From Elusimicrobia bacterium GWA2_56_46 (lineage in GTDB: Bacteria; Elusimicrobiota; Elusimicrobia; Elusimicrobiales; UBA9959): DNA of 64,000 nucleotides. The stretch covers positions 76,801 through 140,800 of the forward strand of contig MGTT01000015.1 in assembly GCA_001799575.1 (NCBI GenBank), read 5' to 3'. This document shows, piece by piece, positions 4,247 through 45,357 of the stretch; within the stretch, counting starts at the first letter, position 1; every line of letters starts with the position of its first letter. A program made the translations under genes and the position numbers. The notes below the pieces were generated by a model. That model was not told where the DNA came from. It worked only from the letters and a program-made list of their open reading frames with translations, and did not search any database.

Positions 4247-5272
4247 ATGGACATAAAAAAAATAGCCGCCTGGCTTGAGGAAACCGGCCAGCCTAAATTC
4301 CGCCTCAGGCAGATAACCGACGCCGTCTATAAGCGGGGCGCGGCGTCTTTTGAAGAGATCACCGCGCTTCCGGAGCCGCTCCGTAACGCGCTGAAAGAAA
4401 AATTCAGGGTACTGTCCATAGAACCGGAAACGATACTTGAATCCAGGACCGGAAACGCGGTTAAAGGTTTATTCCGTCTGAAAGACAAGCACAAGATGGA
4501 ATCCGTCCTCCTGAACCTCTTTCCCGGCAAGTGGAGCGTATGCGTCTCCACCCAGGTGGGCTGTCCCGTACAGTGCGTGTTCTGCGCGACCGGCCGCAGG
4601 GGGCTCCAGCGCAATCTCTCGCCGGACGAGATCGTTTCCCAGTACGTATTCTGGGCCAATTATCTGAAAATTTACCGCCCGGGCGAAAAGATAGGCGGCC
4701 TGGTCTACATGGGCATGGGCGAGCCGTTCCTGAATTATGAATCCACGGCTGAAAGCCTTAGGACGCTGACCGACCCCGGGTTCATCGGCCTGGGCGACAG
4801 GCATATCTCGGTTTCCACCGTAGGCCACGTCCCCGGCATAAGGCGCTTTGCCAAGGATTTCCCGCAGATCAACCTGGCCGTCTCCCTCCACGCGGTGGAG
4901 GATGAACTGAGGTCGCGGCTGGTACCTTTGAACGATAAATATCCCCTGGCCCAGATCTCGAAAGCGCTACAGGACTACATCTACGCCACCAAGCGGAAAG
5001 TTTTTATCGAATATGTAATGCTGGGAGGGGTAAACGATTCGCAGTCTGCGGCCAGGCGGCTCAGCGAATGGCTTAGAGGAGTGGCCGCGCCGAAAAGCTT
5101 CACCGTGAACCTCATCCCCTATAACTCCACCGCCCACGATTTCAAGTCTCCGGGAAAGGAGCGCGTGGAGGCTTTCTCCAGCCTGCTGCTGACCCTGAAT
5201 ATTTCCTGCACGGTCCGCAAAAGCCTGGGAGCGGACATCATAGGCGCCTGCGGCCAGCTCGCCGGCAAATGA
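4247..5272 (+). CDS. rlmN: radical-SAM 23S rRNA/tRNA adenine-C2 methyltransferase RlmN
   Basis: GCPVQCVFCATG radical-SAM cluster motif, GMGEP, C-terminal GACGQL. Confidence 0.92.
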   Translation: MDIKKIAAWLEETGQPKFRLRQITDAVYKRGAASFEEITALPEPLRNALKEKFRVLSIEPETILESRTGNAVKGLFRLKDKHKMESVLLNLFPGKWSVCVSTQVGCPVQCVFCATGRRGLQRNLSPDEIVSQYVFWANYLKIYRPGEKIGGLVYMGMGEPFLNYESTAESLRTLTDPGFIGLGDRHISVSTVGHVPGIRRFAKDFPQINLAVSLHAVEDELRSRLVPLNDKYPLAQISKALQDYIYATKRKVFIEYVMLGGVNDSQSAARRLSEWLRGVAAPKSFTVNLIPYNSTAHDFKSPGKERVEAFSSLLLTLNISCTVRKSLGADIIGACGQLAGK

Positions 5273-5294
5273 TGGCCTGGGCCTAAATTGGGCC

Positions 5295-5323
5295 TTGACA
5301 AGTCAAGGTGAGTGTGCTACACT
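5295..5323 (+). promoter_or_regulatory. near-consensus sigma70-type promoter with extended -10
   Basis: TTGACA (5295-5300), 17-nt spacer, TACACT (5318-5323) preceded by TG (gtgTGcTACACT); almost the same string recurs at 43869-43896. Confidence 0.55.
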
Positions 5324-5329
5324 CACTAT

Positions 5330-5608
5330 GCAGTGATGATCTCTATATCGGTTGCGTCGGTCCGGCGGCCTTTCGGCCCCGGTGTCGGTTCAGCGGGTGT
5401 TGAGCACCCCCGACGCGTGTGACCCGGTTTCGCGCCTTGCCCCCTCTAGGGCGGCGCACCCGGGCGGGTGGTTCGGCCGCCGTGTCCGCGCTTGAAGCGC
5501 GCGCCGGCCGCAGGATTCCACCCCTTACTGGCGAGCCGTGCCGCCTGGCGGCCCGGCGAGAAGACTGGTGACGAGCCCCTGCCCCGCGGCGGGGGCTCTC
5601 ACTTTTTT
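5330..5608 (+). ncRNA. ~275-nt GC-rich structured RNA of unknown family
   Basis: Bounded by the promoter above and an intrinsic terminator. Contains nested helices (GCGTCGG/CCGACGC, GGGTG-ttgag-CACCC, GCGCC..GGCGC, GGGTGG..CCACCC). Only a low-complexity antisense ORF overlaps it. Confidence 0.45.
5573..5608 (+). terminator. intrinsic terminator
   Basis: GAGCCCC (5573-5579) pairs with GGGGCTC (5592-5598), then T6 (5603-5608); no T-run on the opposite strand. Confidence 0.7.
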
Positions 5609-5910
5609 GGGGGAACGGGAGAGCCGCGATCCGGCTGAAAAATATCAGGAGCCCCGGCTTTAAGCGGAATAAACAGGCCATCCATCATCCGGCATGCGGC
5701 CACGACAGGGCGGATGTCCCCGCTGATGCGCGTGAATTTTATCAATTTATCCAATGGGATCATCTCCGGCCTTTCAGGATCCGCCCAGGCATACAGCACG
5801 GCCAGATCAACCCCGAGCATTTCGGCCATCGTATGGGGCAGGATGCCGGCAGGCCGGCCGAGCAGCGCCTTTCTGAAAATCAATTTAAAATTTTCCAGCC
5901 ACCTTCCCAT
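5599..5910 (-). CDS. phage 186 CII-like (Phage_CP76-type) HTH regulator
   Basis: By-eye resemblance to 186 CII: HTH (MAEMLGVDLAVLYAW), then DPERPEMIPLDKL and DIRPVVAACRMMDGLFIPL segments; start moved to MGRW behind a GAGGGGG SD. Confidence 0.55.
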   Translation of the reverse strand: MGRWLENFKLIFRKALLGRPAGILPHTMAEMLGVDLAVLYAWADPERPEMIPLDKLIKFTRISGDIRPVVAACRMMDGLFIPLKAGAPDIFQPDRGSPVPPKK

Positions 5911-6178
5911 AATACCCCCTCGCCGCACTTGTTTTGTCTTCCTTTTGTGAATATAATATTGTACCGGCTGAAAACGGGGGTGGGAGAACGCCCAGGTCAG
6001 GAAGGAACGCCCTCCCACCCGCAAACATAAAGCAAAGCAGAGAGATCTGCCGCGCGGCCTGATTGGCGTGTTGAATTTCCCCGGGAGTATTCCTTCCTTA
6101 CGGCATTGTTTAATATAGTTTAAACAAATTCGCGCAAGTTGTCAAGGGTTTTTTCACCCATGATTTACGGATCTCCTT

Positions 6179-6745
6179 ATGGTATTAAAGGAACTGCTGG
6201 CAAGATGGAATAAGGGTATTTTGCGGGGCGCTCAGAGAAAGTTCGCCGCCGCGATAGGCGTCAAAGAGGCTACTGTCTCGCACTGGGCCAAAGGCGATTT
6301 CACTCCGGACGAAAATCTGCGCGCGAAAATAGCCTCCGAACTGGGCGTCACCCCGGAAGAACTGATGCGGTGTTTTAAATCTAAAAACCGGCACTCGTAT
6401 TCCGGGGAGGCCGGGGCCGAATGGCGCGCGCAAAACCAGAGCATTCCGGTCATCGGCGCGATAACAGGCGGGGCATTCAGTTTCCGGCCGGACGCGACCC
6501 CGGAAGAAATGTTGCCGCTGGCATACAACACCGCGCAGAAAGTGATAGCTTTAAAAATAACCGGAGAAACCCTCATCCCGGCCGCCAAAGGCATGGACTA
6601 CGCGGTTATAAGCATGCAGAACTACGCTGAAAGCGGACAGCTGGCGCTTACGCCTAAAGACGGGAAGCACATATTGAAATACCTTTCCAAAAAAGACGCC
6701 GCGGAGATCATCGGCGTAGTCAGATATTTCTTCAAAAAACCCTGA
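6179..6745 (+). CDS. CI/LexA-like repressor: XRE-type HTH plus S24 peptidase-like C-terminal domain (catalytic Ser apparently replaced)
   Basis: N-terminal HTH (QRKFAAAIGVKEATVSHWAKG); C-terminal LKITGETLIP...ILKYL aligns by eye with the GxSM...KRL pattern of LexA/CI. Confidence 0.7.
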   Translation: MVLKELLARWNKGILRGAQRKFAAAIGVKEATVSHWAKGDFTPDENLRAKIASELGVTPEELMRCFKSKNRHSYSGEAGAEWRAQNQSIPVIGAITGGAFSFRPDATPEEMLPLAYNTAQKVIALKITGETLIPAAKGMDYAVISMQNYAESGQLALTPKDGKHILKYLSKKDAAEIIGVVRYFFKKP

Positions 6746-7775
6746 CGCGCGCCGGAGCAACAAGCAGTCCGCGGTCCAGCAAATACTCCGCTATCTCCAC
6801 CGAATTAAGAGCCGCGCCTTTATACAGGTTATCGGACACTATCCAGAGCTGAAATTCTTTCGGCGAGGTCTCAGCCGCCCTCAGACGCCCTGCTTTCACC
6901 CCGGAAGTTTTCACGACGTCAAGCGGGGTGGGGTATTTATACGGGTTCCCGAAGAATTGAAGACCCGGGGTCGCGGCAAGCGCTGCGCGCAGGGAGGCCA
7001 GCGTCCAGGGCCTGGACGTCCTGGCCCAGACGCTCAGCGAATGCCCCCTCAGGACGGGCACCCGGACAGCCGTCGAACTGATCCTGAGACCGGGCGAAGT
7101 CCAGATCTTTTTGAGTTCCGCCGAAACCTTGGCTTCTTCCACGCTGGTCCCGTTCCCGTCGAAGCCGCCGACCTGAGGGAACAGGTTGAAAGCGATGGCG
7201 CGCGGGAACTTGCGCCCCTTGAGCTCCGGTACGCGGCCATGCTTGAAATAATACAGGAGTTCCGCCTCAAGCTGTTTCAGGGCGCCTTTCCCGGCGCCGG
7301 AAACCGCCTGGTAGGTGGCGATCCTTAATTCCAGTATTTTAAATTTTTTATGAATCCCGTGAAGGGCCACGGCGGCCCCGGTCAGAGTGCAGTTGGGGCC
7401 GGCTATAAGCCTCCCGCCGGATTCCAGCGCGGCGGCGTTTACTTCCGGAATGACCAGCGGCACGTTCTTGTCCAGGCGGAAGCGGGAGGAATCGTCTATG
7501 CACCACACGCCGGAGCCGGCAAGTTTTTTAGCGAACCTGCCGGACACCTCGTCGGTGGAGACGAAAAAAACAAGATCCGCTTTTTTAAGTTCGGAGAAAA
7601 CCGGCTTCCGGCAAAGGTGTTTTTTGCCCTTAAAGGCCACAAAAGCGGCTGTCCGGCCGGAATTGAACGGCAGAAATCTGCCCACGGGAAATTTGCGCGC
7701 CTCAAGCAAGCCCAGCAGTTCCCCGCCCACCAGACCGGAAGCGCCCACGACGGCGACATCAATTTTTTTGGACAT
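6732..7775 (-). CDS. asd: aspartate-semialdehyde dehydrogenase
   Basis: VAVVGASGLVGGE NAD-binding fold, GPNCT active-site Cys, YQAVSGAG. Confidence 0.9.
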   Translation of the reverse strand: MSKKIDVAVVGASGLVGGELLGLLEARKFPVGRFLPFNSGRTAAFVAFKGKKHLCRKPVFSELKKADLVFFVSTDEVSGRFAKKLAGSGVWCIDDSSRFRLDKNVPLVIPEVNAAALESGGRLIAGPNCTLTGAAVALHGIHKKFKILELRIATYQAVSGAGKGALKQLEAELLYYFKHGRVPELKGRKFPRAIAFNLFPQVGGFDGNGTSVEEAKVSAELKKIWTSPGLRISSTAVRVPVLRGHSLSVWARTSRPWTLASLRAALAATPGLQFFGNPYKYPTPLDVVKTSGVKAGRLRAAETSPKEFQLWIVSDNLYKGAALNSVEIAEYLLDRGLLVAPARVRVF

Positions 7776-21823: not shown

Positions 21824-22372
21824 TCAGCGGCCGTTAAAAGACGAGATTTCCTCCAGCGTTTTTCTCTTGCGGGGCGGCGGAGCTTCGTCGGCGTAACCCA
21901 CACTCAACATGATCTCTACTTTGAGACCGGCGGGCAGGCCCAGGGCTTTAGCGGCGCCTTTGGCGTCAAACCAGCCTAGCCAGCAGGTACCGAGCCCCTG
22001 CTCTTCGGCGGCCAGGACGAAATGCTCGGCGGCGATGCCGATATCTATCAGGCGGAAATTTGTGTCCCGCACCTGGTTGCCCAGCCAGGCGGTGAGTTTA
22101 CCTTTTTGGGAAACTACCGCCACGAGGGCTCCGGCCCGGGCGGCGAATCCGGTGGAGGAATAAAGGCCCGAAAAAGCGGCGGCGGCCAGCTTTTCTTTTA
22201 AGTCGGGGGCGTCCACGACTATGAATTTATAGGGCTGGGCGTTGCAGGCCGAAGGGGCCAGGCGCGCGGCCTCCAGGCAGGCGAGAAGTTTTTCTCTTTC
22301 CACGGGCACGGGGTTATATTTGCGCACGCTGCGCCGCTCAGAAACAAGTTTAAAAAAATGATTCTCCCGCAT
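21824..22372 (-). CDS. nitroreductase family protein (intact copy)
   Basis: RRSVRKY...PSACNAQPY nitroreductase N-terminal motif; start at MRENHFF with TACAAT 7 nt upstream. Confidence 0.85.
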   Translation of the reverse strand: MRENHFFKLVSERRSVRKYNPVPVEREKLLACLEAARLAPSACNAQPYKFIVVDAPDLKEKLAAAAFSGLYSSTGFAARAGALVAVVSQKGKLTAWLGNQVRDTNFRLIDIGIAAEHFVLAAEEQGLGTCWLGWFDAKGAAKALGLPAGLKVEIMLSVGYADEAPPPRKRKTLEEISSFNGR

Positions 22373-22586
22373 AACTGATATTGTATAAAAAAGAACGCAG
22401 CAAACCCTCCCCAAAGAATTATCCAATGCAAGATGAGCCTGAAAGCGGGACGCTGCTTAAATGCTCAAATGGGAATAATTCAACCCGGTTTTGACGGTGG
22501 CGACTGCGAAAACTATTCCTGAAATGTGAACAGGCTTATGAACACGTGGATGCGCTGCCGCCGGGTGCCCCGTGGCTGCGGACAAT

Positions 22587-22895
22587 TTAATGGACGTGAT
22601 GCTGGGTGTGGGAGGGCTTGAATGACATTTCCAGCCCCGAAGCGCTTAATATCCCCATAAATGTTTTTAATTCTGGGTTTCCTTTTTTCGAAAGCGTCTT
22701 ATAAACACCCGCTCTTGAAAGGGAAATTTTTTTGGCCATTTTGGAGATGCCATGAGCCCTGACTACCTGGGCTAACACGGCAAGCATAAGCGCCGGATCA
22801 TTTTCTTCTACGGCGGCATTCATATACAGCGCGGCTTCTTTGGGATCTTTAAGCGCTTTATTTAAATAGTCGTCATGGGTTCTGTAGTTTTTCAT
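22587..22895 (-). CDS. higA: HigA-family antitoxin (addiction module antidote, XRE HTH), copy 1
   Basis: HTH ISKMAKKISLSRAGVYKTLSKKGNP; 4-nt overlap with the upstream toxin gene. Confidence 0.8.
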   Translation of the reverse strand: MKNYRTHDDYLNKALKDPKEAALYMNAAVEENDPALMLAVLAQVVRAHGISKMAKKISLSRAGVYKTLSKKGNPELKTFMGILSASGLEMSFKPSHTQHHVH

Positions 22896-23215
22896 AAATT
22901 CCTCTTATAATCGTCCCAGTACTCAATCGCCTTTTTAATATCTTTTGCCTGACTGCTTTTGTCTCCGGCGCAAAGTAAAACGATTACTTCATTGCCATGG
23001 AGCCCGATATAAACCCTGTATCCCGGACCGTAATCAATTCTGAGTTCGATAATTCCATGAGCGATCTTTTTATGGTCGCCAAAATTCCCGAGCTCCGCGC
23101 GGGTAACCCGCACTCTGATTTTGGCGGCTCCGAGGCGGTTTTTGAGCGAATCAACGTATTTGGTATACGCTTCAATTCCCGCATTTGTCTTATAGATTAT
23201 CGACTTTTTAATCAT
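22892..23215 (-). CDS. higB: RelE/ParE-superfamily toxin (addiction module killer, HigB-like gene order), copy 1
   Basis: ELRIDYGPGYRVYIGLHGNEVIVLLCAGDKSSQ motif typical of the killer-protein family; toxin-first order. Confidence 0.8.
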   Translation of the reverse strand: MIKKSIIYKTNAGIEAYTKYVDSLKNRLGAAKIRVRVTRAELGNFGDHKKIAHGIIELRIDYGPGYRVYIGLHGNEVIVLLCAGDKSSQAKDIKKAIEYWDDYKRNL

Positions 23216-23220
23216 CGATA

Positions 23221-23251
23221 ATAGTGTACACTATAGTTTACATCTAGTCAA
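23221..23251 (-). promoter_or_regulatory. higBA promoter with palindromic operator, copy 1
   Basis: Minus strand TTGACT (23251-23246), 17 nt, TACACT (23228-23223), 7 nt, ATG; a perfect 14-bp palindrome ATAGTGTACACTAT (23221-23234) covers the -10. Confidence 0.55.
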
Positions 23252-23304
23252 GGGCTATTTCACAAAAGATAAATGCCGTAAAAACAATGCTTTGGACGGA
23301 TAAG

Positions 23305-23347
23305 GTGACACACAACTTAATTCCCGCTTAATTAAGTTGTGTGTCAC
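23305..23347. other. perfect 18-bp-stem hairpin at the cassette boundary, copy 1
   Basis: GTGACACACAACTTAATT-cccgctt-AATTAAGTTGTGTGTCAC; ends 8 nt from the unit junction at 23355/23356. Confidence 0.8.
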
Positions 23348-23355
23348 TTAATCTT

Positions 23356-23483
23356 CAGGCCGAAGGGGCCAGGCGCGCGGCCTCCAGGCAGGCGAGAAGT
23401 TTTTCTCTTTCCACGGGCACGGGGTTATATTTGCGCACGCTGCGCCGCTCAGAAACAAGTTTAAAAAAATGATTCTCCCGCAT
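23356..23483 (-). pseudogene. displaced 5' fragment of the nitroreductase gene (codons 1-42, then TGA at the junction)
   Basis: Identical to 22245-22372; the junction changes the Cys43 codon TGC to TGA. Confidence 0.85.
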
Positions 23484-23697
23484 AACTGATATTGTATAAA
23501 AAAGAACGCAGCAAACCCTCCCCAAAGAATTATCCAATGCAAGATGAGCCTGAAAGCGGGACGCTGCTTAAATGCTCAAATGGGAATAATTCAACCCGGT
23601 TTTGACGGTGGCGACTGCGAAAACTATTCCTGAAATGTGAACAGGCTTATGAACACGTGGATGCGCTGCCGCCGGGTGCCCCGTGGCTGCGGACAAT

Positions 23698-24006
23698 TTA
23701 ATGGACGTGATGCTGGGTGTGGGAGGGCTTGAATGACATTTCCAGCCCCGAAGCGCTTAATATCCCCATAAATGTTTTTAATTCTGGGTTTCCTTTTTTC
23801 GAAAGCGTCTTATAAACACCCGCTCTTGAAAGGGAAATTTTTTTGGCCATTTTGGAGATGCCATGAGCCCTGACTACCTGGGCTAACACGGCAAGCATAA
23901 GCGCCGGATCATTTTCTTCTACGGCGGCATTCATATACAGCGCGGCTTCTTTGGGATCTTTAAGCGCTTTATTTAAATAGTCGTCATGGGTTCTGTAGTT
24001 TTTCAT
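23698..24006 (-). CDS. higA: HigA-family antitoxin, copy 2
   Basis: Protein identical to copy 1. Confidence 0.8.
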   Translation of the reverse strand: MKNYRTHDDYLNKALKDPKEAALYMNAAVEENDPALMLAVLAQVVRAHGISKMAKKISLSRAGVYKTLSKKGNPELKTFMGILSASGLEMSFKPSHTQHHVH

Positions 24007-24326
24007 AAATTCCTCTTATAATCGTCCCAGTACTCAATCGCCTTTTTAATATCTTTTGCCTGACTGCTTTTGTCTCCGGCGCAAAGTAAAACGATTACTT
24101 CATTGCCATGGAGCCCGATATAAACCCTGTATCCCGGACCGTAATCAATTCTGAGTTCGATAATTCCATGAGCGATCTTTTTATGGTCGCCAAAATTCCC
24201 GAGCTCCGCGCGGGTAACCCGCACTCTGATTTTGGCGGCTCCGAGGCGGTTTTTGAGCGAATCAACGTATTTGGTATACGCTTCAATTCCCGCATTTGTC
24301 TTATAGATTATCGACTTTTTAATCAT
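24003..24326 (-). CDS. higB: RelE/ParE-superfamily toxin, copy 2
   Basis: Protein identical to copy 1. Confidence 0.8.
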   Translation of the reverse strand: MIKKSIIYKTNAGIEAYTKYVDSLKNRLGAAKIRVRVTRAELGNFGDHKKIAHGIIELRIDYGPGYRVYIGLHGNEVIVLLCAGDKSSQAKDIKKAIEYWDDYKRNL

Positions 24327-24415
24327 CGATAATAGTGTACACTATAGTTTACATCTAGTCAAGGGCTATTTCACAAAAGATAAATGCCGTAAAAACAATG
24401 CTTTGGACGGATAAG

Positions 24416-24458
24416 GTGACACACAACTTAATTCCCGCTTAATTAAGTTGTGTGTCAC
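24416..24458. other. boundary hairpin, copy 2
   Basis: Identical to 23305-23347. Confidence 0.8.
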
Positions 24459-24466
24459 TTAATCTT

Positions 24467-24594
24467 CAGGCCGAAGGGGCCAGGCGCGCGGCCTCCAGGC
24501 AGGCGAGAAGTTTTTCTCTTTCCACGGGCACGGGGTTATATTTGCGCACGCTGCGCCGCTCAGAAACAAGTTTAAAAAAAGGAGTTTCCCTCAT
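24467..24594 (-). pseudogene. displaced, diverged 5' fragment of the nitroreductase gene (probable original chromosomal start, MRETPFF...)
   Basis: 114 bp identical to the cores, then only about 3/4 identity for ~85 nt through its own TACAAT-7-ATG promoter. Confidence 0.75.
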
Positions 24595-25203
24595 AATGAA
24601 TATTGTATAAAAAAGAAGACACCACACCCGCCATGGAAAATTATCCAACGCATGATGAGCCTGAAAACAGGGTAACATCAAGACTTCTGTGTGATTTCCC
24701 GGTGCAGGGTTCGCGGGGCCTGTCAGGGGCCCGGAACGCGGAACCGGCGTCGCGCACACCGTGCGCGCGCCTCCGTTCCTCGGCCTCCGCGCTTCGTATG
24801 CTCAGCCTCCGGACGGTTCCGCTTATCCGGCTCCCCTGCCACCCGCTCCACCGACATCGCCAGAGGGCTTATCCTTCCAAATCATCCTCCAGACGCTCTA
24901 CGGCTTCAGGCGTGATAGAACGCCATGTCCTTGCTTAGGTCTTAAACGCTTTTATTGCCAGACTATAATTCTCAGCATTATGATAAGGTTCTTCGGGGCC
25001 CGTAATTTTCAAATAAAGCCTGCGGCAGGCCCCGCGAACTTACAGCCTGCCGTTACCTCATACTATCAGAAAAGGGAGACCTAGTCACGGAATTCACGAC
25101 GGAATCACTACGAGAGATTTCAGACTCATCCTTGGATTGGAAAATGCTCTGGCATGGCGGCGGGTAGCGATTAATACTCCCTATATGATGGCGTGCTTGT
25201 GAT

Positions 25204-42311: not shown

Positions 42312-42386
42312 GGGTGGTTAGCTCAGCGGTAGAGCGCTGTCCTCACACGACAGATGTCACAGGTTCAAATCCTGTACCACCCACCA
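42312..42386 (+). tRNA. tRNA-Val: tRNA-Val (anticodon CAC), CCA encoded
   Basis: Cloverleaf drawn by hand: acceptor GGGTGGT/ACCACCC, anticodon stem CTGTC/GACAG with loop CTCACAC, T-arm ACAGG-TTCAAAT-CCTGT. Confidence 0.9.
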
Positions 42387-42397
42387 ATTTTTATCGG

Positions 42398-42455
42398 GAT
42401 ATACCGGCGATGGGGTTCGCCATAAACCGCCTCAACGGCTGATGACTCCTATAAT
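42398..42455 (+). promoter_or_regulatory. fluoride riboswitch (crcB motif)
   Basis: GGCGATGGGGTTCGCCATAAACCGCC...GGCTGATGACTCCTA matches the remembered crcB-motif core; CTCCT can pair with the crcB SD (AAAGGAG). Confidence 0.85.
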
Positions 42456-42479
42456 CGCGCATCAAAGGAGACTTTCAAT

Positions 42480-42860
42480 ATGTTGAGGCTTTTTTTATTG
42501 CTTGCGGGCGGGGGGGCGGGCACCGTCCTCCGTTACTGGCTCTCCACCATGACCTACCGCGCTTCCGGGGGGATCTTCCCCACCGGCACGCTGGCGGTGA
42601 ACCTCGGCGGATCGCTGGCTGTCGGCTGCCTGTGGGCGCTGTTCGAGAAAGGCGCGCTCACGCCCAACGCGCGGCTCTTTCTGCTGACGGGGCTGCTGGG
42701 CGGGTTCACCACGTTTTCCACGTTCACTCTCGAAAACTTTTCGCTTCTGCGGGACGGAGAACTGAAGCTGGCCGCGGCCAATGTCCTCGTAAGCAATGTA
42801 GCCGGGATCTTCCTGGTCTTCGCCGGCTTCAAGGGCGTAAATCTTATACTGCGGAGGTAG
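42480..42860 (+). CDS. crcB: fluoride channel CrcB/Fluc
   Basis: GGFTTFSTF motif, 4 TM. Confidence 0.9.
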   Translation: MLRLFLLLAGGGAGTVLRYWLSTMTYRASGGIFPTGTLAVNLGGSLAVGCLWALFEKGALTPNARLFLLTGLLGGFTTFSTFTLENFSLLRDGELKLAAANVLVSNVAGIFLVFAGFKGVNLILRR

Positions 42861-42861
42861 C

Positions 42862-43206
42862 ATGAAACTGCCTGAAAACGGAAAACTGCTCAGAATTTTT
42901 ATAGGCGAATCCGACAAGCACGGCGACAAGGCGCTTTACGAGGCCATCACTCTCAAGGCTCGGGAACTGGGCCTGGCCGGCGCCACCGTAGTCAGGGGCG
43001 TAATGGGCTTCGGCGCCGACAGCCGTATGCACACCGCCAAACTGCTGGAGCTCTCCGAAGATCTGCCGATGATCATAGAACTTGTGGATACCGGGGAGAA
43101 CCTGAACAAGCTGATGCCTTTTCTGGATGAAACCGTGACCGAGGGCCTGATAACGATAGAGGACGTTAAAGTGGTAAAATACCGGCACAGCACCGCGGAA
43201 AAATAA
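42862..43206 (+). CDS. DUF190 (PII-like) protein commonly linked to crcB
   Basis: LRIFIGESDKHGDKALYEAI...GATVVRGVMGFG. Confidence 0.8.
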   Translation: MKLPENGKLLRIFIGESDKHGDKALYEAITLKARELGLAGATVVRGVMGFGADSRMHTAKLLELSEDLPMIIELVDTGENLNKLMPFLDETVTEGLITIEDVKVVKYRHSTAEK

Positions 43207-43212
43207 ACGACT

Positions 43213-43872
43213 ATGCTCTCATACCTTGTCTCCACGTTCTTAAAATTCGTTGACCTGTTCCTGCACCTGGATAAATACCTGGGCGAAGTCATCAAAAGCT
43301 ACGGGAACTGGACTTACCTGATACTTTTCACGATAATCTTCTGCGAGACGGGGTTCGTGGTCACGCCCATTCTGCCGGGGGATTCGCTTTTGTTCGCGGT
43401 GGGAATGTTCGCGGCCGCCGGGGCGATAGACCTGTCCAGGATCTGGCCGCTGCTGATCTTCGCCGCCATCCTGGGAGACAATGTCAATTACGCGGTGGGG
43501 AATTTCATCGGCCCCAAGGTCTTTCATTACGAGAATTCCCGGATCTTCAGGAAGGAGTACCTCCAAAAAACCCACAATTTTTACGAAAAGCACGGCGGAA
43601 TGACGATCATTCTGGCGAAATATGTCCCCATAGTGCGCACTTTCGCCCCTTTCGTGGCCGGCGTGGGAGCCATGACCTATCCGAAATTCCTGCTGTTCAA
43701 CGTGGTGGGGGGATTTACCTGGGTGACGGTCATAATGCTGTCCGGTTACTATTTCGGCAATATCCCGGTCATAAAGAACAACTTCACCGCCGTAGTGCTT
43801 CTCATCGTCTTCCTCTCCATGCTCCCCGGCCTCATCGGCTACCTGAAACACCGGCGCAGCCCGTCGCCTTGA
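43213..43872 (+). CDS. dedA: DedA-family membrane protein
   Basis: FVVTPILPGDSLLF motif. Confidence 0.85.
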   Translation: MLSYLVSTFLKFVDLFLHLDKYLGEVIKSYGNWTYLILFTIIFCETGFVVTPILPGDSLLFAVGMFAAAGAIDLSRIWPLLIFAAILGDNVNYAVGNFIGPKVFHYENSRIFRKEYLQKTHNFYEKHGGMTIILAKYVPIVRTFAPFVAGVGAMTYPKFLLFNVVGGFTWVTVIMLSGYYFGNIPVIKNNFTAVVLLIVFLSMLPGLIGYLKHRRSPSP

Positions 43873-43896
43873 CAAGTCAATTGCGTGTGCTATACT
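43869..43896 (+). promoter_or_regulatory. near-consensus promoter, twin of the 5295-5323 promoter
   Basis: TTGACAAGTCAA...GTGTGCTATACT (16-nt spacer, extended -10 TG); the -35 overlaps the dedA stop codon. Confidence 0.5.
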
Positions 43897-43989
43897 ATCA
43901 ATGCGCCGGGCGGGCCTAAAGGCCTATTGACTGCCGGGCCTAAAGACTATTGACCGGCGGTTTTTCAGGAGCGATAATATAGTAACTAT

Positions 43990-45357
43990 ATGAAACACGG
44001 CATATTACTGATGACACTGGCGGCCGCGATAACCGCGCTGATAATTAACGCGGAAGCGCAGGATCTCTCTTTCGACGGCCTCCAGGCCGGCCTGGCCCGC
44101 ATTAAGTCCGCCGGCGCCGCGGAACCCGCTCCGGCCCCTGCCCCGGCGCTTAAAACACCAACCGCCGCACAGTCCCGGCCGGCCGCGGAAAGGGAGTGGC
44201 TGGTGCTGGTCTTCATGAACGGGCGCAATGAACTCTGGCAAAACGCCATCAAAGATGTGAACGAAATGGAGCTTATCGGCTCCACCGACAAAGTGGCCGT
44301 TACCGTGGAACTTGGCTTATCTCAGGATCGGGGCGATTCCTCCAGACTTTATATCCGGAAAGATACCACCGCCGAAGCGAATAATCTGGCGGGGAAAATC
44401 GTTTCACCCGCCGTTAAAGTGTCCGGCTCCGACATGGGAAACTGGAAGCATTTCGTAGATTTCGCCAGATGGTCATACCGTAATTACCCCGCCAAAAAAG
44501 TGCTGGCCGTTGTCTGGGGCCACGGTTCCGGACGCGTGGATATCGGCGGCGCCGACAACTCCGGTTCGGAATTCGGCATCTCCCCCGACAACTTGACCCG
44601 GAACTTCATACGCAACAGGCAGATGGCCAGGGCGCTAAGGGAAATAGAAAAATCCATTGGTAAAAAAGTGTCCGTCTACGCTTCGGACACCTGCCTTATG
44701 CAGATGGCAAGCGTGGCCTATGAGATAAAAGATGGAGCGGAATTGATAGTGGGATCCGAAGAGATTACGCCTTTTAATGGCTTCCCCTACAGCGCCATCC
44801 TGCGCGACCTTGCCGCCAACCCCGGTATGGGTCCCGGAGCCCTGAGCGCCATGATAGTGGACGATTTCTCCGCCTCTTACTCCGCCACCGGCGCCGGCAC
44901 GACCATCTCCGCCATAAAGACCTCCGAACTGCCGGAATTCGTCCGCCTCCTGAATGACTGGCTGCGCGCGGCCGCCGTCCCCGCCCACAGGACCAATCTC
45001 CTGAACGCTGAACGGGAAACCCTGTCTTTTGAAAAAGGCTACAACGGGAACGACACCGCCGATCGTACCGGCTCAAAAGATCTCTACGATTTTGTGGATC
45101 TCGCCGGGAAAAAGGCCGGCAGGGCTTCCGGGCTCCACGCCAAAGGCGAAGTTCTGAAAAATTTTATAACCGGCAGGCTGGTAACGCGCAATAAAACCAC
45201 GCCGCCAGGGGGCGATTATGACCGCGCGAAAGGTTTGGCAATATACTTTCCGAAAATGATCTACGACCAGAGCTACGATGAGACACTATTCTCGCGGGAC
45301 TCGCTCTGGGACGACTTCCTGAAATGGAAGCTGGATCGTTCTTACAAGGTGAAATAG
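43990..45357 (+). CDS. secreted clostripain-family (C11) cysteine peptidase
   Basis: Signal peptide; His/Cys dyad contexts VVWGHGSG and ASDTCLMQ. Confidence 0.75.
   Translation: MKHGILLMTLAAAITALIINAEAQDLSFDGLQAGLARIKSAGAAEPAPAPAPALKTPTAAQSRPAAEREWLVLVFMNGRNELWQNAIKDVNEMELIGSTDKVAVTVELGLSQDRGDSSRLYIRKDTTAEANNLAGKIVSPAVKVSGSDMGNWKHFVDFARWSYRNYPAKKVLAVVWGHGSGRVDIGGADNSGSEFGISPDNLTRNFIRNRQMARALREIEKSIGKKVSVYASDTCLMQMASVAYEIKDGAELIVGSEEITPFNGFPYSAILRDLAANPGMGPGALSAMIVDDFSASYSATGAGTTISAIKTSELPEFVRLLNDWLRAAAVPAHRTNLLNAERETLSFEKGYNGNDTADRTGSKDLYDFVDLAGKKAGRASGLHAKGEVLKNFITGRLVTRNKTTPPGGDYDRAKGLAIYFPKMIYDQSYDETLFSRDSLWDDFLKWKLDRSYKVK

Follow-up and report, generated by a model that had tools for sequence, protein, structure and literature searches.

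The window analysed here, a 64-kb stretch of the genome of Elusimicrobia bacterium GWA2_56_46 with a mean guanine-plus-cytosine (GC) content of 0.565, contains a putative non-coding RNA gene that lies between rlmN and a pair of genes for phage-type regulators (Table 1). The RlmN and CII-like proteins of the window match NCBI entries for this metagenome-assembled genome at 100% identity. The RNA promoter begins 22 nt past the rlmN stop codon, and a promoter-to-terminator stretch of ~277 nt ends where it meets the 3' end of a convergent CII-like gene, beyond which a CI-like repressor gene follows on the strand of the RNA. The CII-like protein matches the PHROG 101 profile "CII-like transcriptional activator" with an expect value (E) of 2.9e-8 and has only 4 homologues in the protein database searched; together with the domains of the CI-like protein, this bears out the phage-type regulators that a preliminary description of the same DNA had placed beside the RNA. 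The pair is flanked by relA/spoT, an arfB-like gene, a sulfatase gene and rlmN on one side and by asd, a hypothetical gene, parB and parA on the other. Besides the window, three diverged copies of the RNA are found (86-96% identity), namely that of the loci L081, L131 and L132, the last two identical to L081, that of L133, which is 96% identical to the window, and that of L134, which is 96% identical to the window with a deletion. All copies stand in the order rlmN, RNA, CII-like, CI-like, and at L081, where the gene order is that of the window, the CII-like protein is 79-85% identical (two measures).

Table 1. Features of the RNA locus and of a fluoride-resistance unit elsewhere in the window
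Feature	Positions	Strand	Remarks
rlmN	4247..5272	+	no plus-strand terminator before 5573
RNA promoter	5295..5323	+	consensus scan; found again in L081
RNA 5' end and AU-richer 5' segment AUGCAGUGAUGAUCUCUAUAUCGGUU	5328..5353	+	mostly unpaired
H1, Y-shaped domain	5354..5416	+	consensus fold; closing stem GCGUCGG/CCGACGC, two inner hairpins
H2, hairpin	5423..5464	+	consensus fold; CCCGG...CCGGG, inner stem
H3, long hairpin	5466..5523	+	consensus fold; GGGUGG...CCACCC, apical CGCGC-UUGAA-GCGCG
H4, hairpin	5525..5571	+	consensus fold; UUACUGG...CUGGUGA, apical GCCGC-CUG-GCGGC
Intrinsic terminator	5573..5607	+	consensus scan; repeated in L081
CII-like gene	5599..5910	-	103 aa (P0001); start ATG at 5910; PHROG 101, PF06892 weak
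CI-like repressor gene	6179..6745	+	HTH_3 and Peptidase_S24; 571 nt past the RNA terminator
tRNA	42312..42383		
Fluoride riboswitch	42397..42458		14 nt after the tRNA
crcB	42480..42860		
DUF190 gene	42862..43206		

The RNA promoter combines a -35 element TTGACA (5295-5300), a 17-nt spacer and a -10 element TACACT (5318-5323) with an extended -10 TG at 5315-5316; it scores 10/12 in the consensus scan, and four promoter-like sites are observed in the region, compared with 0.8 expected from shuffles. The -35 element sits within a 16-bp palindrome, CCTTGACAAGTCAAGG (5293-5308), and, from the position of the -10 element, the RNA is predicted to start near 5328-5330. At the other end, the terminator stem GAGCCCCTGCC/GGCGGGGGCTC (5573-5598) consists of 11 pairs, 9 of them GC, and a 4-nt loop, after which come TCAC and six T residues at 5602-5607; by our own reading of the sequence, GUGA at 5567-5570 can pair with UCAC at 5599-5602, so that the U-tract would directly abut the extended stem. 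Both calls recur in L081 in the same scan, and the terminator stem is the same in the window, L081 and L133, with a shorter U-tract (UUUU) in the latter two. The stretch between promoter and terminator has 70% GC overall and 0.755 in the 200-nt window 5400-5599, and its peak of 0.787 (150-nt windows) is the highest of the 64 kb. The near-consensus promoter and the ~275 nt of GC-rich sequence closed by a canonical intrinsic terminator, as first described, are thus confirmed. The further statement that the T-tract overlaps the stop codon of the CII-like gene holds for the overlap with the gene and fails for the codon, because the stop codon (5599-5601) falls between the scanned stem and the T-tract, which covers the last two sense codons (K K).

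The plus strand of this stretch folds with -152.2 kcal/mol (z = -3.7) and the minus strand reaches z = -4.25, so that the folding energy indicates a structured sequence and cannot pick the strand. The RNAalifold consensus contains 95 pairs and arranges them in four GC-rich hairpin domains plus the terminator, separated by linkers of 1 to 6 nt, with H2, H3, H4 and the terminator set apart by single nucleotides and with a 5' segment of ~26 nt that is unpaired or weakly paired. The comparison set comprises four distinct RNA sequences, the window included, and the 5' segment is identical in all of them except for one A-to-G change in L133. The closing stem and the first hairpin of H1 never vary, and its second hairpin shows three one-sided changes from GC or AU to GU; H2 is nearly invariant and therefore neither supports nor contradicts the structure. 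H3 carries two compensatory U-A to C-G changes in L081 (pairs 149:201 and 153:195 of alignment A2) and one GC-to-GU change. In H4, two pairs are changed on both sides (213:241, from C-G to U-A, and 211:247, found as A-U, G-C and G-U), two mismatches occur in L133, and the 3' arm is deleted in L134.

Between the window and L081, the promoter is 94% identical, the RNA 89.5% and the 22 nt upstream of the promoter 75%, the third codon positions of the neighbouring genes being 75-87% identical, and no substitution falls within 5328-5382. On the RNAalifold consensus, substitutions touch 13 of the 190 paired columns (6.8%) and 16 of the 99 unpaired ones (16%). In three pairs both partners have changed with pairing retained, and seven further changes are one-sided and tolerated through G-U; no pair is broken on the plus strand, whereas seven would break on the minus strand. 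Across the four sequences, 98.9% of the cells pair, compared with 39-47% when the partners are slid, and four pairs show double changes. The substitutions favour a plus-strand structured RNA to a modest degree, since the sequence diversity is low; the homologues that the preliminary description had proposed to look for do exist, and their substitutions speak for the structure, although their diversity is too low for the firm covariation test that it had envisaged. We regard a structured plus-strand RNA of ~277 nt, with its start near 5329 and its 3' end near 5607, as probable.

No known family accounts for this RNA, in agreement with the first description. With Rfam 15 at gathering thresholds, the whole window yields only a tRNA and a fluoride riboswitch, both outside the RNA. 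A permissive search of 5150-5750 returns four unrelated matches, all with E of at least 1.5 and far under threshold, the best being a snoRNA (17 bits, E 1.5), and at E <= 10 it contains no 6S, signal recognition particle (SRP), RNase P, tmRNA or riboswitch match; ARAGORN finds no genes in 5000-7000. The features of tmRNA or tRNA-like molecules, RNase P and SRP are therefore absent by permissive Rfam and, for the tRNA-like fold, by ARAGORN. Likewise, the earlier view that this is not a classical 6S RNA stands, given that 6S is a single extended hairpin of ~150-200 nt with a large central bubble and paired ends, whereas the ~277 nt here are arranged, in the minimum-free-energy fold as in the consensus fold, as four tandem hairpin domains and a terminator. 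A reading of GUGAUGA...CUGG as a K-turn or C/D box was rejected by inspection, the D-box-like element being CUGG and not CUGA and a flanking stem being absent. For a riboswitch or attenuator leader, there is no aptamer match, and the next plus-strand gene (CI-like) lies 571 nt off with an opposite-strand gene between.

A protein-coding reading was rejected as well. The open frames in the stretch are rich in Arg, Ala, Gly and Pro, as GC-rich sequence would give, and all frames of the window RNA that reach 35 aa are shifted or split in L081 by three 1-nt indels, so that no frame is preserved there and the initial judgement that no credible open reading frame (ORF) exists is upheld. The bias of the substitutions by coordinate mod 3 (13/11/2, our own count) matches no conserved frame, and the open frames of the stretch, a 112-aa ORF on the minus strand among them, have no match in Pfam or PADLOC.

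The distribution of the RNA was followed in 80 loci fetched from GTDB species genomes by rlmN anchoring, the closest of which are the Elusimicrobia loci L001-L006 (RlmN 75-85% identical), with DNA similarity that breaks off precisely at the stop codon of rlmN. Blastn and a covariance model both fail to detect an RNA homologue in the 80 loci, L001-L006 and further Elusimicrobia included, and the covariance model finds no further copy in any Elusimicrobia locus fetched by rlmN anchoring or as the relative L135; the CI-like, CII-like, asd and parB genes are likewise not in the rlmN-anchored relative loci. In sum, eight relatives with RlmN 75-86% identical have neither the RNA nor the CI/CII pair 3' of rlmN, and L135 (RlmN 86% identical) has an HTH_17 gene in place of the RNA. 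The presence/absence comparison leaves out L087 and L088, whose contigs are too short around the CII-like gene. The RNA is missing where the CI/CII pair is missing, even though rlmN is present, and so it goes with the pair and not with rlmN; we hold it somewhat better than an even chance that the RNA belongs to the pair. Whether homologues stand beside rlmN or beside CI/CII-like genes had been posed as a check, and the copies are always next to the pair, rlmN alone being insufficient. The rlmN 3' flank differs in each close relative, with the HTH_17 gene at 4065-4648 in L135 and unrelated ORFs at 5027-6126 in L004 and 5027-6811 in L006, and is a variable spot in the lineage.

Of the two origins considered at the outset, integration into a conserved RNA gene finds no support, given the absence of the RNA 3' of rlmN in L001-L006, L135 and further Elusimicrobia and the lack of an integrase, an att-like repeat, a tRNA or a tmRNA nearby. 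Specifically, the gene annotation of the window shows no integrase near the CI/CII pair, and a search for att-like direct repeats flanking 5273-6745 gives only imperfect matches inside coding genes. An element-encoded RNA fits better as far as every copy adjoins the CII-like/CI-like pair, and fits less well in that the pair stands between housekeeping genes and has no relatives in viral collections. Distant blastn of phage and plasmid collections gives no RNA match, and the viral contigs of IMG/VR contain none for three exact RNA patterns, nor for the CII-like and CI-like protein profiles. Since the pair lies among core genes, with neither integrase nor att sites and with no viral relatives, it looks like a resident, domesticated chromosomal switch and not a recent prophage. 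In metagenome contigs, the 18-mer TGATGATCTCTATATCGG has 33 matches, all by chance, a negative that is weak because the collection misses the Joint Genome Institute (JGI) contigs L132-L134 that carry the RNA. The RNA is known from one narrow clade and is a candidate new family with no relative outside it.

Two relatives inform on the 3' end of the unit. In L088, whose CII-like protein is 57-61% identical, positions 783-795 of the minus strand hold a hairpin GCGGC-CGG-GCCGC followed by TTTTGG, convergent to the CII-like gene and 46 nt past its stop, and the contig ends 18 nt beyond the hairpin; this suggests that in distant relatives, too, a convergent transcript may end near the CII-like gene. 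The copy in L134 (812-1113; JGI 3300025011), which over the aligned part is otherwise the same as that of the window, has lost ~66 nt that comprise the H4 3' arm, the terminator and the CII-like stop codon, a deletion that gives a CII-like ORF of 132 aa. Either a true variant of the population or an error of assembly could account for it, and it is compatible with an element that can be damaged in nature, under weak constraint, or with such an error.

The CI/CII intergenic region (5929-6160) has an architecture of its own. A plus-strand promoter, TTGTTT-17-TATAAT (5929-5957), and a minus-strand promoter, TTGACA-17-TAAACT (6145-6117), face each other there, and both are conserved. Besides the sequence GTTTAAAC, the region contains a conserved structured element made up of a 16-bp hairpin GGGUGGGAGGGCGUUCC...GGGCGUUCUCCCACCC, the box pair GGAAGGAA/UUCCUUCC, and a terminator-like hairpin GGCAGAUCUCUCUGCU with a U-rich tail. 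Only on the minus strand can the G-U pairs of the 16-bp hairpin form, and compensatory changes in it are seen in L088 and L089. Conservation of this element extends as far as L093, whose CI-like relative has 44% identity and in which the promoter on the minus strand seems to drive ~300 nt with no CII-like ORF. Rfam has no match in this region. The element may be an attenuator or leader RNA, and it offers more sequence diversity than the RNA unit does. Homologues of the CI-like protein are P0005-P0010, and the contig of P0008, from a third species, also links the CI-like gene to asd-parB-parA and carries a C11 peptidase operon divergent from it. A gene of the ADP-ribosyl exotoxin family (PF03496) lies between asd and the CI-like gene in L081 (4234-5055) and L131 (7064-7885), and in L093 (1-228) a PF03496 gene is found ~6 kb from the distant CI-like gene.

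The RNA promoter has a counterpart elsewhere in the window. The region 5279-5331 and the promoter at 43866-43960, which lies upstream of a clostripain-family Peptidase_C11 gene (43990-45357), share 33/40 nt, including the palindrome TTGACAAGTCAA and GTGTGCTAYACT. The 12-mer TTGACAAGTCAA occurs in the window only at the RNA promoter and at 43869, and the 9-mer GGGCCTAAA has three exact occurrences, all in the RNA and C11 promoter regions, and is not conserved in L081. This likeness might reflect a common regulon or a promoter module that was duplicated.

Our best guess for the function is a regulatory RNA of the CI/CII pair, placed as OOP RNA is beside lambda cII, and we assign a probability of roughly 0.4 to this explanation as a whole, that is, to a real, independently transcribed, non-coding structured RNA tied to the pair with an OOP-like role. 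The strong promoter would drive transcription of the RNA toward the 3' end of the CII-like gene. A scan of the minus strand from 5599 to 5273 finds no canonical terminator for that gene, and hence a 3' extension of its mRNA would be antisense to the RNA. Pairing of the RNA with the mRNA, or collision of the polymerases, may then reduce CII-like expression, and the RNA terminator would normally keep plus-strand transcripts, whether begun at the RNA promoter or coming from rlmN, from crossing the CII-like gene in antisense and entering the CI-like gene. The antisense or interference mechanism taken by itself is doubtful; it ranks first only narrowly, given the missing coding overlap and an RNA whose size and structure go far beyond what antisense action requires.

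Several observations weigh against the OOP-like explanation. The overlap of the RNA 3' end, T-tract included, with the CII-like gene (9 nt, 5599-5607) is specific to the window genome, whose protein carries a C-terminal extension; in L081, ~75 nt separate the end of the gene from the RNA terminator, so that the coding overlap does not exceed 9 nt in the window and is nil in L081, unlike OOP, and the CII-like gene shows no added constraint at its third codon positions (0.75). The RNA 3' of 5383 is ~85% identical to L081, near the neutral rate, and L134 is a natural variant with neither the H4 3' arm nor the terminator. The comparison is limited to four distinct sequences at 86-96% identity, and in a shuffle control 13 of 500 shuffles attain the observed values. 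Moreover, the RNAalifold consensus was fitted to the compared sequences themselves, and for this reason the count was redone on single-sequence minimum free energy (MFE) structures, in which 6-8 of the 13 touched pairs are kept on the plus strand and 4/13 and 4/9 on the minus strand.

Among the alternatives, a stand-alone RNA whose target lies elsewhere, and whose adjacency to the CII-like gene is incidental, is unlikely, albeit the least so; it would act in trans by base-pairing through its invariant single-stranded 5' segment or bind protein in the manner of 6S or Ms1. The absence of window-versus-L081 substitutions in 5328-5382, where neutral divergence would be ~15-25%, the compact multi-hairpin body with a terminator that is typical of stable small RNAs (sRNAs), and the lack of overlap with the CII-like coding region in L081 all agree with such an RNA, but its 5' 33 nt, scanned for duplexes against 66 start regions of the window, do no better than shuffles (58% scored as well), the fold by our own reading shows no repeated loop motifs pointing to protein titration, and the clade is very narrow for a global regulator. 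The best complementarity, 14/15 nt between the first hairpin of the RNA, GCCUUUCGGCCCCGG (5368-5382), and codons 78-83 of the CI-like mRNA (6411-6425), is expected by chance window-wide (E 2.6); the site is identical in L081, and on the RNA the matching bases are locked within a stable hairpin. Duplexfold of the entire RNA with the leaders of the CII-like, CI-like and C11 genes gives nothing above shuffles, and the program is not meaningful here for long sequences. Less likely still is that the stretch has no dedicated function and is a GC-rich rlmN 3' untranslated region (UTR) and terminator, or a decayed remnant, that insulates the CII-like gene, with a promoter that is fortuitous or a copy of the C11 one. 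This would suit an rlmN with no other terminator, the near-neutral divergence 3' of 5383, the tolerance of a 66-nt deletion in L134, the modest pair support from unbiased MFE structures, and the 33/40 nt shared with the promoter at 43866-43904, which make a duplicated module possible. It sits badly with a promoter that is fully conserved in L081 although the flanking spacer has diverged, with a rate of change in paired columns that is half that in unpaired ones, with G-U-compatible changes that favour the plus strand, with ~280 nt at 70-79% GC, which a 56% GC genome could hardly keep up without selection, and with relatives that terminate rlmN without the RNA element.

The preliminary description had held that the RNA cannot be a 5' leader, a statement that proves too strong on two counts: the CI-like gene lies on the same strand 571 nt past the terminator, and rlmN has no terminator of its own before 5573, so that the region doubles as the rlmN 3' UTR. 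A long leader with a conditional terminator, from which read-through would run antisense over the CII-like gene into the CI-like gene at a rate set by the structure, nonetheless has little likelihood. The scan finds no other plus-strand terminator before the CI-like gene, the short U-tracts of L081 and L133 suggest leaky termination, L134 is a natural terminator-less variant, and the establishment promoters PRE of lambda and pE of phage 186 follow a resembling logic; but there is no known aptamer and no conserved antiterminator alternative was seen, the CI-like gene has its own conserved promoter (5929-5957), which the distant CI-like loci L089 and L093 keep together with the leader in the absence of the RNA, and the RNA promoter is near-consensus and not activator-dependent, unlike PRE and pE. 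Slimmer yet is the chance that the RNA is the functional core of a domesticated CI/CII switch and itself the immunity or regulatory factor, maybe co-regulated with the clostripain-family operon through TTGACAAGTCAA; the RNA immunity factors of P4 and P1 have a comparable role. Finally, a diverged Elusimicrobia version of 6S, SRP, RNase P or tmRNA that escapes Rfam has next to no chance of being the answer, for only the GC-rich, structured and strongly promoted character speaks for it, and against it stand the empty permissive search and ARAGORN result, the tandem hairpins in place of a rod with a central bubble, the absence of the RNA from the locus in relatives with RlmN 75-86% identical, and a covariance model that finds none in the fetched Elusimicrobia loci.

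The OOP-like placement can be set beside known systems. OOP is 77 nt long and acts by pairing with the CII mRNA, which leads to cleavage that depends on RNase III and to less CII; Krinke and Wulff, in 1987 and 1990, reportedly described its suppression of CII. In lambda, transcription of OOP starts at pO, heads toward cII and stops at the tO hairpin; the RNA has a 52-nt overlap with cII and suppresses CII activity, and RNase III cleavage sites lie outside cII (PMC5869508). Both RNAs are non-coding, have their own promoter and hairpin terminator, and converge on the 3' end of a CII-type gene in a CI/CII region; the Elusimicrobia RNA differs in being ~277 nt long and heavily structured, in having no sequence similarity to OOP, in lacking a coding overlap of tens of nucleotides (at most 9 nt in the window, 0 in L081), and in that its CII-like neighbour is of the phage 186/CP76 type (PHROG 101, PF06892) and not of the lambda CII type. 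The kind of feature, a promoter-to-terminator small RNA next to phage-type regulators, is already known. The switch of phages 186 and P2 has face-to-face pR and pL promoters and a CII-activated pE, and the locus resembles it in the conserved face-to-face promoters of the intergenic region and the CP76-type CII-like gene, and differs in having no integrase, replication or structural genes; we know of no RNA gene of comparable kind described for phage 186. Type I 3' UTR-derived sRNAs, such as DapZ and MicL, have their own promoter and a terminator common with the upstream mRNA, and the RNA is similar in lying 3' of rlmN on the same strand, with an internal promoter and the only terminator shared; it is, however, not inherited with rlmN (absent in eight relatives) and is much longer and more GC-rich than typical examples. 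With 6S, an RNA that binds the RNA polymerase holoenzyme and templates product RNAs, and with the mycobacterial Ms1, it has in common that it is strongly promoted, GC-rich, in the 200-300 nt class, highly structured and non-coding, and it differs from them in having no Rfam match, no rod with a central bubble, and a single narrow clade.

Elsewhere in the window, 42312-43206 is an ordinary fluoride-resistance unit (Table 1), and 22245-24766 contains three direct copies of a sequence at a spacing of exactly 1111 nt; copies one and two match at 100% over 300 nt, and copy three is 66% identical.

The value of the finding is limited by the very narrow distribution and low diversity of the RNA. To our knowledge, Elusimicrobia are an uncultured phylum essentially without described regulatory RNAs, and, if transcribed as predicted, the RNA would be a new family, unusually long and GC-rich for an sRNA, from this phylum. 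If it were itself the core of the switch, it would be a large regulatory RNA of a new class, from an uncultured phylum. The phage-type CI/CII pair, settled among core genes near parAB, would be a tractable case of the reuse of phage switch modules by the host, possibly together with an OOP-like RNA.

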